From a virus, in the UHGV virus genome UHGV-0175244: DNA of 44,935 bases; one strand, 5' to 3'. The notes beneath the pieces are model-generated. The model was given only the letters and a program-made list of their open reading frames with translations. It was not told where the DNA came from and did not search any database. Shown here piece by piece: positions 1-10,441 of the stretch. How positions within the stretch are numbered: position 1 is the stretch's first letter; every line of letters starts with the position of its first letter. The translations under genes were made by a program, and so were the position numbers.

Positions 1-49
1 GGGAGCATAGCTTGTCACTGATGCGCTCAATTTTACAAGGAATAAACCG

Positions 50-589
50 ATGCCATTACCCGAACGTCTGCAACCAGCCAAAGTAAACCGCCAGAAACTG
101 AAACAGCTAGCGGACATGGCCGAAGAGATACTGGCGCAAATTGATAACGGGGCTAAGGAAGAGGATACCGGGTTGAAAATGTTGATAAATGACTGGAATA
201 GCCTGGTTATTAACCCGTATGCATTCTCTGATTTCCGGGATTTCTCTTCATGGACCAGTGCAAAAGACTTCACCCGGATGGCGTTTAATCAGGAAAAATA
301 CGTGGCGGATTTATCCTGGGATGAGCTGATTCAGATCATCCAGTTTGTGTGTCAGGCCGAAGGTAAGGAATCTGAACAAAGCTACGCGCTGGGACTGCTT
401 GAGAAAAACTTTGATGCCAATCCATCCGACCTCATCTACTGGCCTAATGAATGGTTTCAGGATAAAGACATGCTTCATGTCGATTTAACGCCTGAAGAAA
501 TCGCCGGATACCTGATGGCAAAATCTGGCCGGCGGCTAAGCGATGCGCCGCACATCGAGCTGAAGTATCCTATCCCTTCAAATATTTAA
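50..589 (+). CDS. hypothetical protein with C-terminal colicin/pyocin DNase-immunity-like (Im7/Im9-type) domain
   Basis: 179-aa ORF with AAGGA about 10 nt upstream; C-terminal ~85 aa recalls E-colicin immunity proteins (PSDLIYWPNEW cf. Im9 GSDLIYYPKEG); N-terminal ~90 aa unassigned; recall-based. Confidence 0.4.
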   Translation: MPLPERLQPAKVNRQKLKQLADMAEEILAQIDNGAKEEDTGLKMLINDWNSLVINPYAFSDFRDFSSWTSAKDFTRMAFNQEKYVADLSWDELIQIIQFVCQAEGKESEQSYALGLLEKNFDANPSDLIYWPNEWFQDKDMLHVDLTPEEIAGYLMAKSGRRLSDAPHIELKYPIPSNI

Positions 590-1056
590 GGTGTATTACC
601 CTGCCCGCAAAATGTGAGTACGGGCCCCGCTCCAGTGAGGAGTCTACCAGGTATATAGCCTGCGGATATTCAACGTAATGCGCGACTATTATGAATAGTT
701 CAGAGTAACGAACCATGCATAATTTGCGTTATGTCCGACGCCCTTCAGAAGCCAGCGATAGTGTAAGTATCACTGCAAAAAGCAGGGCGAGGCTAAACGT
801 TGTCTTGCAATAGGTAGACCAGGCGATCAACTACTGATGAATCCGTTTAATGCTCCGCCAGGCGCCAACTCAATGAATGCCAAGTCATCGACAGCATGCA
901 CATCTTTGCTGATGAGTTACCACTTAATAAACCCCTGAGTGCTATCCAGGATTGATAGCGGAAACTAGAGGATAAAAGTACATAGCTGCAAAGGTGTTCG
1001 AGTTAGTCGGTTACGTCGTGCTCATGAAGCTATTTTGGGTAATTTGGATGTTGCTA

Positions 1057-1341
1057 TTACCGCGGATGCGGAAAGTATTTCTCCATTTTCACGAACTCTG
1101 GTTCAACCCATTTAGGCCCCTTCACTACTTGACCATTCTCACCAGTCATCAAAATTCCGGCCTGATATAATCGGTCAAACGACTCGATTAATTCCGCATT
1201 TGTGATGTGCTCTGTTCGCCCCCTGATGATTAATGGGTCTAATCTGTACAAAGGAATCTTGTACGCAAGCGCGGTTAGCAGGTCATCAATAGACTCATCA
1301 CGAAGCATTGCCTTAAATCTTTCAAGTTCAATATCTGACAT
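1057..1341 (-). CDS. hypothetical protein
   Basis: 94-aa ORF in AT-rich left flank; no recognisable motif. Confidence 0.3.
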   Translation of the reverse strand: MSDIELERFKAMLRDESIDDLLTALAYKIPLYRLDPLIIRGRTEHITNAELIESFDRLYQAGILMTGENGQVVKGPKWVEPEFVKMEKYFPHPR

Positions 1342-1804
1342 GTGAAATCAGGCTCCTGTTCCTTCAATATAACGAAGGAGTATTCATATATTACCCAAGC
1401 CTTAATATTTTTGAGGAAGGCTCCTGACAGCAACTGTATCCTACCACAGCCGCCATGCTTAGCGCTCGCTGATTATCGGTCTGAAAACATGATGCGGGTA
1501 ATGAAGTGCCCCTGCTGTTACGTGTCGTTGGCTGACAATAATGCATTCCAACTCACGCGCATCAAACGGTGCTAAAGGCCACCGCCATCAGACAGCTTAT
1601 AGGGTTTGTCCTTAGTTTTAGATATATCGACCTGGCGGGCTGCGAGCTTCACCTGAGGTATCTCCTTTCATTGAACAGGAATCTCCCTCCACATGAATGT
1701 GGATTTCAATGAATCATACAAGACATTGAGGTAATGGAATATTTGAAAATGCCGCGTATATACTGGGCTGAGTAGACTTCAGGGGACGTTAAGAGAAGTG
1801 AGTA

Positions 1805-1849
1805 TGGCACGCCCTACAGGATTCGAACCTGTGACCTACGGCTTAGAAG
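1805..1849. repeat. int-distal attachment-site core (45-bp copy of tRNA-Arg 3' end)
   Basis: tggcacgccctacaggattcgaacctgtgacctacggcttagaag is identical to 43603-43647; flanks diverge immediately outside. Confidence 0.85.
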
Positions 1850-2590: not shown

Positions 2591-2619
2591 TTGCCAAAAA
2601 CCAGACGTAGTGGCAAGAT
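2591..2619 (+). promoter_or_regulatory. candidate sigma70 promoter for gtrABC
   Basis: TTGCCA, 17-nt spacer, CAAGAT; weak -10; about 30 nt upstream of gtrA start. Confidence 0.25.
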
Positions 2620-2648
2620 CCGCACCTTGCGATTATAGGAATATACTG

Positions 2649-3008
2649 ATGTTAAAGCTGTTCGCTCGCTACGCTTCAGTTGGGGCGGTTAACACTCTCA
2701 TTCACTGGATAATTTTTGCTGCTCTTTACTCACAGGGCTTCAACCAGTCGATGTCAAACTTTGCGGCCTTCTGTTGCGCGGTAACCTTTTCATTTTTCGC
2801 AAATGCCAAGTGGACATTTGACGCTGAGACCACCACGTTTCGCTACATAATTTATCTTTTCTTTATGGGCGGCATGGCATCTGCAGTTGGAATGTATGCG
2901 GACAGGTCGCACTCCAGCCCTGTTATTACGCTTATTGCTTTTTCTGCCATCAGCATGGTGTGTGGATTCATTTATTCAAAGTACATTGTTTTCAAGGATA
3001 GAGGATGA
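2649..3008 (+). CDS. gtrA: GtrA-family bactoprenol-linked glucose translocase (flippase)
   Basis: ~120-aa small membrane protein; internal ATG (M14 of listed ORF) with AGGA RBS; directly precedes and overlaps gtrB. Confidence 0.8.
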
Positions 3009-3934
3009 AAATATCCCTTGTCGTTCCGGTATTTAATGAAGAAGACGCCATAACCATTTTCTATAGGGAAATCCGTCATTTTCAGCCCTTCCAGGGGGAA
3101 GAGGTTGAAATTGTCTTTGTAGATGACGGTAGCACTGACTTCACTGCTGTTCTGATGAAAGAGATGGCGCAGGAAGATAGTCTGGTCAAAAACATATTCT
3201 TTACTCGCAACTTTGGTAAAGAAGCTGCGTTATTTGCTGGGCTAGCAGAGGCCAGCGGCGAGGTGGTAATACCTATAGACGTGGACCTTCAGGACCCGCT
3301 GGAAGTCATTCCGCGCATGATTGAGAAATGGCGAGAAGGGGCTGATGTTGTTCTGGCAAAGCGCATGGATAGGTCTTGCGATAGCTACCTCAAGAAAAAA
3401 AGCGCTGAATGGTTCTACCATCTTCACAACTTAATCAGTAATCCTCAAATTGAAGAGAACGTAGGCGATTTTCGTCTTATGTCCCGAGAAGTTGTCGAAC
3501 ACATCAAGCTGCTGCCTGAGAGAAACCTTTTTATGAAGGGGATACTATCCTGGGTAGGTGGTAAGACAGATGTGGTTGAATACGTAAGAGCCGAAAGAGC
3601 CGCAGGAAAAAGTAAGTTTAATGGCTGGAAGCTTTGGAATCTGGCGCTTGAAGGGATAACGAGTTTTTCTACCTTCCCGCTGAGAATGTGGACGTATATC
3701 GGTCTCTTCGTAGCCGGTTGCTCATTTTTTTATGGGGCATACATGATTGTGGATACCCTTTGTTTTGGCAATCCGGTGAAGGGATATACATCGATAATGG
3801 TATCGATGCTATTCCTTGGCGGCGTTCAGCTGATAGGTATTGGAGTGCTCGGCGAATACATTGGCCGCATTTACATCGAAACAAAGAACAGACCAAGATA
3901 CATTACGAAAAGGGATAATGTTGAACATGAGTGA
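3005..3934 (+). CDS. gtrB: GtrB bactoprenol glucosyltransferase (GT2 family)
   Basis: 309 aa; N-terminal [10 protein letters not shown] and VDDGSTD glycosyltransferase-2 motifs; C-terminal membrane segments. Confidence 0.9.
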
Positions 3935-5411
3935 TTCAGCGTTAAAAAACGATAAATTCCAGCGAATTTTTAGAATTGTTTTGCCATTGTCCCTTTTATA
4001 CATATCTTGGATTGTTTTTACTGGCAGACTTTACATTGATGACTTAGGCCGTTCTCTTTACGGTTATACATCGTGGGGACAGGACGGCAGGCCAGCCTCT
4101 GATCTATTAATGTCAGCCTTGAGTTTTGGCACGCCAATCCTAGACATTACACCCCTTCCCCAGATTTTATCTGTCATTGCCTTAAGTGCAGTTCTGTCAC
4201 TTTGGGGGGTAAAGTATCTGCCAAGAAAAGGCACAACCTCTTCTGCTGTATGTGTTTTATATTTTATTCTATCACCATTTTTCCTTGAGAATATCTCATA
4301 TCGTTATGACTCACTACCTATGTCTTTGAGTCTTGTTGCACTATTATTGCCATATGCATTGAAGAAAAAACCTTGGTCTCCTTTTCTACATTTCATTTCT
4401 GTTATCGCTTCCCTGTCTTTTTATCAGGCATCAATATCGTTATTCATATTACTTATGATTATTGATGTAATTCATCTTTATTTTTCTAAAAAAGATGATT
4501 TAAGACATCTAGAAATAATCAAGTCAATTGCAATTAACACGCTTGCCTTTGCTGCTGGATTTGTTTTTTATAAGGTATTAATTGCTAGCTCCTTTGCGTC
4601 AGGCTCTTATTCTGATGAGCACTCAAAAATTATAAACGTTGACCACACCTTTTTTGATGTACTGTATAATAATACAGTTGTCATATTTACGTGGCTTTTA
4701 AACCCGCTTTATAAGTGCTCACCTTTTCTCTTTAAGGGGTGCGCATTGATCTTGCTAGTTAGCATCATAAAGATATCAATGACATCCAAAGATGTGAAAT
4801 CCAGAGTTATTAACTTATTTTTACTTTCCGCCTTGATTACTGCGGGCTTTTTCTCTTGCTTTGCACACATTGCACTTCTTAAAACCCCTGTGCTAGCGCC
4901 TAGAGTATTAATATCTTTCACAGGATTCTTCCTGCTTTTTGCATACCTAGTAGTCCAAGCCTTTGAAAGTAAAAAAATTCAGCTGATACTTTTGGCCCCT
5001 GTTGTTTTTTTTAGTTTCATACTTTCATTTTCTTATGCAAACGCATCAAGCTCCCAAAAGGAGCTAGATAAATTAATTTCCACCTCAATTTATAACGACA
5101 TTTCTCATCAAGATTTGAGTTTTAAAAATGTTTTCATTCATGGCGTTATGCCAACATCGAAGCAGAGGGCATTGATAGTCGAGAGACTTCCGATAATGAA
5201 TTCTCTGATACCTATTTATTTAAATAACAATTGGTCTTGGGGGGCTATGATTCTTAAGCATTACCTTCTCGACTACAATGTGGACGCAACAATTACAGAT
5301 CCAAAAAAGGAAATCTGCTCCTTAACACCATTCTCCAGGTCTAAGGATTATTCACTATACAGCAAAGGTGATACCTTAATAGTATCATTTGATAAGACTG
5401 GATGCCGCTGA
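3918..5411 (+). CDS. GtrC-type serotype-specific O-antigen glucosyltransferase (polytopic membrane protein)
   Basis: about 497 aa, highly hydrophobic, markedly AT-rich relative to the rest of the prophage; start overlaps gtrB end (ATG at 3918 or 3927); third gene of a gtr operon. Confidence 0.6.
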
Positions 5412-9362: not shown

Positions 9363-10441
9363 CAGAACGGGTCCTCCTGTACTCTGGCTTTTTTCTTTTT
9401 CCGCGCGCCGGGGGCTTCGGGTTCAGGCAGATAAGCATCAGGTGGGCCGACACGGATTTCCGTCAGGGTGCCGTTCTGGTCCTGAGTAAACGTGACTTCC
9501 GAAACAAGCAGTTCGGTATTGTCGAAACCACAGACCGGATCAAAGACAATCACCCGCTGGTTGGGCTGCCACAGCGTACCGTTACCCTGTCGCCAGCCCT
9601 GCACCACATAGGTGGTTTCATCCGTCCGCGCCGCCCGTTGCCGGGCTTCAAAGTCAGCACGCGCAATACAGCCTGCCCCCGTAGCCTGCCCTGTCTGCCT
9701 GATATACATCGGACGGTAACGGGCAATAAATGCGTCCTCTGCGCGGGCCCGCAGCGCGGTGGTGGTGGCCTCACCGAAATCATCGTCGTTTCCGGCACGC
9801 TGCCCCGCCACCTGGTAAACAGAAAATCGCTCCCGGATACTCTTCTCCGTATCGCAGGAAAGGATGTTTTCCCCGAGTACCAGCGCAGTATGTGCCCGCG
9901 TTGAGCCAATACCGCCAATCACCAGCCTGCCGTGCGGGTCGTCGTAAGCCAGTGCCTGCTGCTGACCGAGTATTTTGTTGATTACCTCAATCACCGTTTC
10001 ACCGTGATCAGGCTGAACATCAGGAATAACACCCGACGGCGCACCGCTGTTCACCACCTCAATGCCGAAAGGCGCAGCAAGCGCCTGCGCAATCTGTACC
10101 AGCGATCGTCCGTTAAACTGTGTCGGTTCGGCTGCACAGTCAATCAGGTCAGCGGTCAGACTGCGTCCGGCAATACCGGTGCTGACCGAACGGGCATCGT
10201 AACGAACGGGCGTCGCCTCCACCCAGCCGGTGATCACCAGCTCATCACCAATCAGCACCTCCACTTTTGAACCGTTTTTAATGCGCGGCTGAAGCGTGGT
10301 AATACCCTCATCTCCCGGCCACTGGCGGGTGATCTCCACACTGAAATCCCGCGCCAGCCGTTCAATACCGGCACCGATGCGCACCGATGTCCAGCCATTC
10401 CACTCCCGGCCATTTACCCGTAGCGTGACATTGTCGTTCAT
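9362..10441 (-). CDS. Mu P (gp44)-like tail/baseplate hub protein
   Basis: 359 aa; N-terminus MNDNVTLRVNGREW... typical of this family; synteny. Confidence 0.7.
   Translation of the reverse strand: MNDNVTLRVNGREWNGWTSVRIGAGIERLARDFSVEITRQWPGDEGITTLQPRIKNGSKVEVLIGDELVITGWVEATPVRYDARSVSTGIAGRSLTADLIDCAAEPTQFNGRSLVQIAQALAAPFGIEVVNSGAPSGVIPDVQPDHGETVIEVINKILGQQQALAYDDPHGRLVIGGIGSTRAHTALVLGENILSCDTEKSIRERFSVYQVAGQRAGNDDDFGEATTTALRARAEDAFIARYRPMYIRQTGQATGAGCIARADFEARQRAARTDETTYVVQGWRQGNGTLWQPNQRVIVFDPVCGFDNTELLVSEVTFTQDQNGTLTEIRVGPPDAYLPEPEAPGARKKKKARVQEDPF

Follow-up and report, generated by a model that had tools for sequence, protein, structure and literature searches.

The record UHGV-0175244, a virus genome of 44,935 nucleotides that we analysed as a single window, opens with DNA of its host, Klebsiella pneumoniae, and with a gene for a 179-residue protein (open reading frame (ORF) at 50–589, + strand; hereafter ORF179). 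We assign this protein to an unnamed two-domain branch of the colicin/pyocin deoxyribonuclease (DNase)-immunity (Im) superfamily, and we regard the 2-kb islet in which its gene lies as horizontally acquired. Its predicted function is that of an orphan anti-DNase protein of the Im type, encoded by a solitary gene, and we judge the case for this function to be evenly balanced. The reading frame is present as listed in an earlier note made from the sequence alone; it starts with an ATG that has an AAGGA Shine-Dalgarno sequence 8 nt upstream. The exact protein occurs in K. pneumoniae and K. variicola, where it is annotated as a 'hypothetical protein', and it is the product of a real gene under purifying selection, with a ratio of nonsynonymous to synonymous substitution rates (dN/dS) of 0.16 against the homologs of Klebsiella sp. 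I138 and Pantoea. The protein is laid out as an N-terminal helical domain (residues 1–80), an Im-like domain (approximately 82–160) and a Pro-rich tail. Library searches with Pfam, NCBIfam, PADLOC and PHROG models returned nothing significant.

The resemblance of the C-terminal half to DNase immunity proteins, proposed in the earlier note, is borne out by a family profile, by profile–profile comparison and by the predicted fold. When ORF179 is searched as a single sequence against PDB sequences using phmmer, Im9 variants are found first, with E-values from 0.0024 to 0.1. A family profile built from 40 homologs ranks Im9, Im8, Im7 and Im2 first in the same database (E 8.5e-5 to 1e-2). Im9, Im8 and Im7 chains make up the 11 best matches, and among the first 19 matches 18 are of the Im type (E 8.5e-5 to 0.27), the only other entry being an unrelated acetyltransferase at rank 12; in these alignments, residues 82–135 of ORF179 are laid on Im residues 4–59. 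When the C-terminal half was compared by hhalign with an alignment of Im proteins that includes Im7 and Im9, the match had P = 1.1e-5. The N-terminal half did not match this Im alignment, and the idea that it represents a second Im domain formed by internal duplication was rejected, as hhalign also found no match between the two halves. Its 80 residues match nothing known, in agreement with the earlier description of this half, although they do carry a nearly invariant FSDFRDFSSW motif. The AlphaFold2 (AF2) model of ORF179 contains nine helices (predicted local distance difference test score (pLDDT) 92.4; predicted template modelling score (pTM) 0.82), and the distorted four-helix Im fold is found within it. 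Two fold-comparison methods both place Im proteins first, Foldseek ranking Im8 at the top and a designed Im protein second. By sequence and by model, the C-terminal half of ORF179 is a remote relative of the colicin/pyocin DNase immunity proteins.

The likeness extends to helix III. The helix III segment of Im9 is a conserved DNase-binding hot spot, as established from work on colicin–immunity complexes. In the HMMER alignment its residues S50-D51-L-I-Y54-Y55-P56 pair with S126-D-L-I-Y-W-P132 of ORF179 (codons 425–445, + strand), such that the DNase-binding motif formed by D51, Y54, Y55 and P56 is in register and W131 stands at the position of Y55. Across the 40 homologs, N124, P125, L128 and P132 are invariant, S126, D127, I129 and W131 are at least 90% conserved, and position 130 is either Y or F; this segment has the lowest entropy of the C-terminal half. 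Compared more broadly with Im2, Im7, Im8, Im9 and ImS8 (PF01320), ORF179 shares alignable helices I–III, the S-D-L-I-Y-(Y/W)-P motif and acidic residues in the preceding helix.

The ORF179 family is small and taxonomically wide: in a set of 1.84 billion proteins it has 208 representatives at the 50% identity level. Members come from the Enterobacterales, Pseudomonas, Yersinia, Myxococcota, Planctomycetota and one actinobacterium, and some of the distant ones consist of the Im-like C-terminal half alone (93–126 residues). The sites at which the gene is found are unrelated between genera, and even between Klebsiella species, and it usually stands alone. Clustering of the neighbours in 62 species-level loci revealed local synteny only and no conserved partner gene; the Pseudomonas homologs, for example, follow a two-component system. 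Truncated or split homologs were seen in Raoultella ornithinolytica (L055:1853–2060 and 10002–10180), Klebsiella sp. R390 (L053), Kosakonia (L076) and Edaphovirga (L059), the two Raoultella fragments lying approximately 8 kb apart as if split by an insertion. An 83%-identical homolog, present in two assemblies named Klebsiella pneumoniae (L084/L085:6001–6546), resides on an island whose other genes include one for a P4-type primase (DUF927/Toprim) and an AAA_15/AAA_21 ATPase gene pair, a neighbourhood typical of defence hot spots.

Two settings do connect the family with DNase toxins, and in these the relatives of ORF179, like Im proteins, adjoin toxins of the Col-Pyo_DNase type or their remnants. 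The first is on plasmids. A 58%-identical paralog was detected by tblastn on 523 plasmids, of which 492 are from Klebsiella and 412 are conjugative. On a 5.8-kb ColRNAI plasmid and on an IncFII plasmid it is divergently adjacent to a bacteriocin gene with Pyocin_S and Col-Pyo_DNase domains, accompanied in the IncFII record by a canonical Colicin_Pyocin immunity gene and on the ColRNAI plasmid by a lysis gene. On a 9-kb Enterobacter plasmid the paralog and the bacteriocin gene are approximately 0.8 kb apart and separated by an entry-exclusion gene, and here the bacteriocin gene is followed by its immunity and lysis genes. At least 80% of a 3.5-kb paralog–klebicin module is present in 420 plasmid records; one annotator labels its toxin a 'klebicin B-related nuclease bacteriocin', and the paralog beside it is annotated 'hypothetical protein'. 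The linkage between paralog and bacteriocin has been kept even though the Klebsiella and Enterobacter versions have diverged to 76–78% DNA identity. At the position of Im9 Tyr55, the plasmid paralog has H where chromosomal ORF179 has W. The accession of the paralog is WP_004178052 and that of the klebicin next to it WP_004228432. Two metagenome contigs that might have been counted as independent toxin-linked cases were rejected as derivatives of the same plasmid. The second setting is an array in Salmonella enterica comprising an Hcp-Pyocin_S effector, a gene for a 112-residue protein, three Colicin_Pyocin immunity genes and an 83-residue HNH DNase remnant, in which the ORF179 homolog is the last gene.

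Descriptions of the klebicin B cluster (PMC10269471, PMC5536347) give kba, kbi and kbl only and do not mention a divergent fourth gene. The paralog occupies such a position on about 420 plasmids, approximately 360 bp upstream of the DNase bacteriocin gene and divergent from it, whereas the copy in the window is chromosomal, 42% diverged and devoid of klebicin genes. We also noted that the plasmid klebicin gene (L094:4323–6640 and L092:211–2534) is annotated as two overlapping coding sequences of 128–130 and 672 residues, suggesting that kba is frameshifted or disrupted there; disruption is reported for the majority of klebicin B-like genes, with kbi intact (PMC10269471). Between the plasmid klebicin gene and the ORF179 paralog there are sequences that we read as LexA-box-like. 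Nuclease bacteriocins, commonly of the DNase type, are found in 31% of K. pneumoniae genomes (PMC5536347).

Several observations weigh against an immunity function for ORF179. The earlier note had stated that a lack of similarity to immunity-protein profiles would refute its proposal and, formally, this is what the curated model returned: Pfam Colicin_Pyocin (PF01320) misses ORF179 at E <= 1 and matches only 4 of the 40 homologs, weakly (best E 0.033); a few database homologs carry a precomputed match to it. The Foldseek E-values are poor (0.3–0.6). With its 179 residues ORF179 is double the length of an Im protein (approximately 85 residues, and 85–95 for the single-domain form), the excess consisting of the unrelated 80-residue N-terminal helical domain and the Pro-rich C-terminal tail. 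Helix II is hypervariable and sets specificity in true Im proteins, whereas its equivalent in ORF179 (residues 107–120) is conserved, with a mean entropy of 0.86 bits that is below that of most other segments, and this argues against a toxin–immunity arms race. Most family members are solitary and have toxin-free surroundings, as seen in Serratia, Pantoea, Pseudomonas, Xenorhabdus and the screened Myxococcota and Planctomycetota loci, and the association with toxins amounts to two independent contexts only, the klebicin plasmid family and the Salmonella array. Finally, in the klebicin modules the place after the toxin is already taken by a canonical Im gene, and the paralog, on a side of its own, is transcribed divergently, so its role beside klebicin could differ from immunity.

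The Pfam miss and the small number of toxin-linked contexts, together with the fact that the 420 plasmid copies represent one spreading module, could be taken to mean that the Im likeness is too remote to have functional meaning. ORF179 would then be an accessory helical protein on a scrap of foreign DNA, and the DNase neighbourhood of its relatives a matter of hitch-hiking. We think this rather improbable, given that the sequence profile, the profile–profile comparison and both fold-comparison methods rank Im proteins first and that the diagnostic SDLIY(Y/W)P motif is in register. It also fits poorly with the persistence of the klebicin linkage at 76–78% identity between plasmids and with the Salmonella array, which provides a second context with an unrelated delivery system. 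The assignment to the Im superfamily is backed, despite the Pfam miss, by the family profile, which recovers Im proteins as the top PDB matches, and by the association of the family with DNase bacteriocin loci.

A different possibility accepts the Im-type fold and gives it another role. In this case the family would be accessory to bacteriocin plasmids, for example by chaperoning or handling the nuclease, by regulating the SOS-controlled klebicin operon or by contributing to plasmid fitness, and the chromosomal copy would be a stray. On the two inspected Klebsiella plasmids the paralog is divergent from the klebicin promoter region and outside the toxin–immunity operon, records that list a canonical Im gene already have it in place behind the toxin, and both the conservation of helix II and the extra N-terminal domain with its FSDFRDFSSW motif are in keeping with such a role. 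So is the presence of the family in phyla for which colicin-like bacteriocins have not been described, nuclease bacteriocins having been reported only in gamma-proteobacteria (PMC5536347). However, Pfam and NCBIfam searches revealed no domain for DNA binding or enzymatic activity, conservation within the Im-like domain is highest in the helix III motif that contacts the DNase, and the Salmonella copy stands in line with three immunity genes. An accessory factor for bacteriocins also leaves unexplained why most copies are solitary with no bacteriocin nearby, and on balance we regard this explanation as unlikely.

If ORF179 is indeed an orphan Im-type protein, its Im-like domain would bind the HNH DNase domain of incoming klebicin-, colicin- or pyocin-type bacteriocins, or of DNase effectors delivered by type VI secretion systems (T6SS) or contact-dependent inhibition (CDI) systems. 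Binding would involve the helix II/III face, that is, the SDLIYWP motif of helix III and the acidic helix that precedes it. The bound DNase would be unable to cleave DNA, as with Im7 and Im9, and the presumed result is protection of cells that are not producers of the toxin themselves. A bolder version of this idea, which we consider unlikely, is that the family of approximately 180-residue proteins forms a distinct and unrecognised class of DNase-toxin inhibitors. Such proteins would combine an Im-type domain with the conserved N-terminal domain and, with a binding face that is conserved instead of shaped by an arms race, would protect against colicin-type HNH DNases broadly or as a second line. 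They would also be a fourth, overlooked component of the klebicin B-type modules that hundreds of Klebsiella plasmids carry, conjugative IncF-type replicons among them.

Orphan immunity genes are familiar from other systems, including the extra immunity genes on ColE plasmids and orphan cdiI and rhsI modules. They also make up the acquired interbacterial defence (AID) arrays of Bacteroides (PMC12469244). ORF179 resembles these in being an immunity-type gene without a toxin in horizontally acquired, strain-variable DNA, and its Salmonella homolog lies within an array of this kind, but ORF179 is a single gene with no recombinase and its protective effect is a prediction.

The earlier note saw no cognate toxin gene in a window that begins just upstream of ORF179, and none comes into view when the flank is extended. 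Our reference set consisted of eight genomes encoding exactly the 179-residue protein, and in these there is no toxin gene within 10 kb upstream of ORF179, nor between ORF179 and the transfer RNA (tRNA) gene that bounds the islet. Upstream lie genes for a transthyretin-like protein, citrate synthase and an acetyltransferase as well as cadCBA, with no HNH, Rhs or CdiA gene among them. A tblastn search found no DNase remnant near ORF179. The gene therefore does not lie immediately downstream of a cognate DNase toxin, as a classical Im gene would, but is an immunity-like gene without such a toxin in its 20-kb neighbourhood.

The earlier note had also suggested that this flank might be the tail of a toxin–immunity locus, and this idea gains independent support from an unannotated conserved element of approximately 170 bp that begins 30–40 nt past the ORF179 stop codon (618–790, + strand). 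Unannotated segments with 76–85% identity to the element occur in 76 of the 5,426 E. coli genomes searched and also in Pantoea, Enterobacter and E. coli plasmids; related segments include L095:2501–2615, L096:4001–4132, L097:4001–4116, L098:4001–4116 and L099:4001–4087. In five of the six loci inspected it is located in, or directly downstream of, a cdiA gene or an orphan array of CdiA C-terminal (CdiA-CT) modules, and in three of these five it is found 29–37 nt beyond the stop codon of a small gene; at such sites in CDI arrays its place is the distal end of orphan CdiA-CT/immunity modules. The element may represent the 5' end of a lost gene, an array boundary or a small RNA. It contains a short conserved ORF that is degenerate in the window, where a stop codon interrupts it (ATG at 731, stop at 764–766), and it matches neither Rfam nor Pfam.

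The possibility that the 170-bp element is a symE/symR remnant was considered and is not supported. The element has no SymR Rfam match in the window or in three related loci (in one of the three, SymR is found elsewhere), no tblastn similarity to SymE and no Pfam match for its short ORFs, the sole resemblance being an 'RLTVG' motif. A SymR RNA match (E 1.4e-5; L095:4304–4377) is at an annotated symE in the CDI orphan array of a Pantoea dispersa megaplasmid. The same array has two isrA small RNA-like matches (L095:1725–1839 and 4443–4553) interleaved with immunity genes.

The DNA that carries ORF179 is not part of the prophage that fills most of the window. The prophage starts at 1850 and is bounded by identical 46-bp att cores at 1804–1849 and 43602–43647, the left-hand copy corresponding to the 3' part of tRNA-Arg and giving a weak tRNA match of its own (1808–1861). 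The integration target is the intact tRNA-Arg(tct) gene identified by ARAGORN at 43603–43679 (− strand), and the integrase gene was located at 42424–43584 by tblastn using the integrase from a sister locus. The flank is 99.8–100% identical across the eight K. pneumoniae genomes. In two of them the att site is empty, with window position 1849 joined directly to 43648 via a single core and with window 1–1849 followed by the tRNA, folD, ybcJ, cysS, ppiB, lpxH and purEK; the other six have different prophages or islands inserted at the same core. This comparison of empty and occupied sites identifies region 50–1800 as host-side DNA just beyond the distal end of the prophage, which is where the earlier note had placed it.

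Two GenBank records named as Klebsiella phages Kp4856-1 and Kp4862-1 (OK490410.1 and OK490415.1) match ORF179, the second ORF of the flank (ORF94, below) and the adjoining spacer at 98% DNA identity (approximately 46580–48334). Their prophage limits appear to have been drawn too wide, because the matching part is host-side flank in the window. A phage origin of ORF179 was rejected, its only 'phage' matches being two prophage records that include host flank near one end, and no viral fold relatives were found. Inside this end of the prophage, two ORFs of 132 and 309 residues (2610–3934) may be GtrA- and GtrB-type O-antigen glucosylation genes, to judge by the look of their sequences.

The flank forms the right-hand 1.8 kb (1–1803) of an islet that has hiuH, the transthyretin-like gene, on one side and the tRNA-Arg 3' end on the other. 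We refer to this islet as type A; it measures approximately 2.05 kb in total, with its left edge about 250 bp outside the window. When the window's own folD product was looked up in K. pneumoniae genomes, the unoccupied site proved to be polymorphic. Type A genomes have the order hiuH, ORF179, ORF94, tRNA, whereas in type B genomes hiuH and the tRNA are separated by a different ORF, of 97 residues and with an N-terminus resembling a signal peptide. The islets themselves (approximately 2,050 and 1,064 bp) share no similarity; they give way to homologous DNA precisely at the att core in one direction and approximately 82 bp upstream of hiuH in the other. Type B is commoner in the sample of genomes (5 listed places and a further 26 similar ones, against 1 plus 2 for type A). 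The exact ORF179 protein is found in 1,358 indexing blocks compared with 51,786 for folD, which points roughly to type A as the rarer form; the block count underestimates type A, because variants of ORF179 exist. Since alternative islets occupy the same place in genomes with an unoccupied site, the flank is not the conserved core genome that the earlier note had named as a refutation of its reading. The type B islet at L102:4521–5585 (also in L101, L103, L105 and L108) is unrelated to that of the window, and its 97-residue protein has several cysteines in addition to the signal-peptide-like N-terminus (MNIKFVAISVFAVVCVFA...).

This DNA had been described as AT-rich. The flank is indeed of lower guanine-plus-cytosine (GC) content than its surroundings (42–50% over 1–1800, ORFs included, and 46% for the type A islet, as opposed to 60–65% in the neighbouring core genes), but its non-coding stretch is not more AT-rich than its ORFs. 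A megablast search of the flank against E. coli genomes gave no match.

The second gene of the islet, ORF94 (94 residues, 1057–1341), is present as listed, and we find it to be on the − strand, which makes it convergent with ORF179. Its family is narrow (11 clusters, from Klebsiella and Serratia). The 76%-identical homologs of Serratia marcescens are in lambdoid prophages, in the moron position between the lysis cassette and the terminase, where they adjoin a gene for a DNA polymerase III theta (HOT-like) protein (L089–L091:6001–6601). ORF94 has no significant match in Pfam, NCBIfam, PADLOC or PHROGs and its AF2 model is poor (pLDDT 52.6). It was rejected as a linked partner of ORF179, with which it does not co-occur outside K. 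pneumoniae.

Between ORF94 and the tRNA 3' end, or att core, is a non-coding spacer of 462 bp (1342–1803), close to the 450 bp estimated earlier and free of called genes in all eight annotated genomes. It has no Rfam match, no promoter-like site, no integrase remnant and no similarity outside K. pneumoniae. Within it, a repeat search located the nested inverted repeat of the earlier note at 1667–1713, ending 91 bp from the att core. The outer arms, TTCATTGAA (1667–1675) and TTCAATGAA (1705–1713), are 9 nt each and 100% complementary, and they enclose an inner repeat, TCCACAT-GA-ATGTGGA, at 1688–1703. The segment is invariant among the strains carrying it and absent from type B strains.

The nested repeat could in principle be an operator, an integrase or integration host factor (IHF) arm-site remnant of a decayed element, or a terminator of read-through from tRNA-Arg. 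Its proximity to the att core, the nearly palindromic character of each arm and an RNA fold z-score of −2.1 on the + strand favour a functional site, as does the occurrence of the nested arrangement in only about 1% of dinucleotide shuffles of the flank, a figure which is not a proper probability because the pattern was defined after being seen. On the other hand, a 9-nt perfect inverted repeat within 60 nt, such as the outer pair alone, appears in 25% of the shuffles. The fold of the strand transcribed with the tRNA (−) is ordinary, with z = −0.9 alone and −0.16 with the tRNA-side flank, and there is no T-run; a terminator scan found no site there, and there is neither a promoter-like site in the flank nor an Rfam match to the repeat. 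Type B K. pneumoniae evidently express tRNA-Arg without the repeat, and there is no sequence variation against which its conservation could be gauged. A functional site is consequently very improbable and without support, and we treat the palindrome as chance or a relic.

An alternative suggestion in the earlier note, that the flank is the remnant of an older element at the tRNA site, stands in part. The islet has features of tRNA-associated islets and decayed integrative elements, being strain-variable DNA of atypically low GC and mosaic content that is present or absent according to strain and lies flush with a tRNA 3' end used by several prophages. It differs from them in several ways, however. 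There is no integrase similarity in 1–1850, nor any integrase remnant, and no second att copy (no core 18-mer with <=4 mismatches in the 3.3 kb to the left of the tRNA); the islet is only 2 kb long, and the other allele at this place is not an empty site but a second small islet. It nevertheless behaves like the residue of earlier acquisitions at a tRNA hot spot, and the 170-bp element, ORF94 and the spacer with its palindrome are best read as mosaic debris of such acquisitions.

Should the predicted function of ORF179 prove incorrect, the locus would remain a clean, though ordinary, case of alternative islets at a prophage hot spot in a tRNA gene. If it is correct, and extends to the plasmid paralog, some K. 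pneumoniae strains would hold toxin-independent protection against klebicin- and colicin-type weapons, with a bearing on strain competition in the gut and on the klebicins proposed as therapeutics. The Im superfamily would gain a two-domain branch that is missed by current Pfam and NCBIfam models, and a candidate function could be proposed for the conserved, unannotated neighbour of klebicin B that hundreds of Klebsiella plasmids carry.

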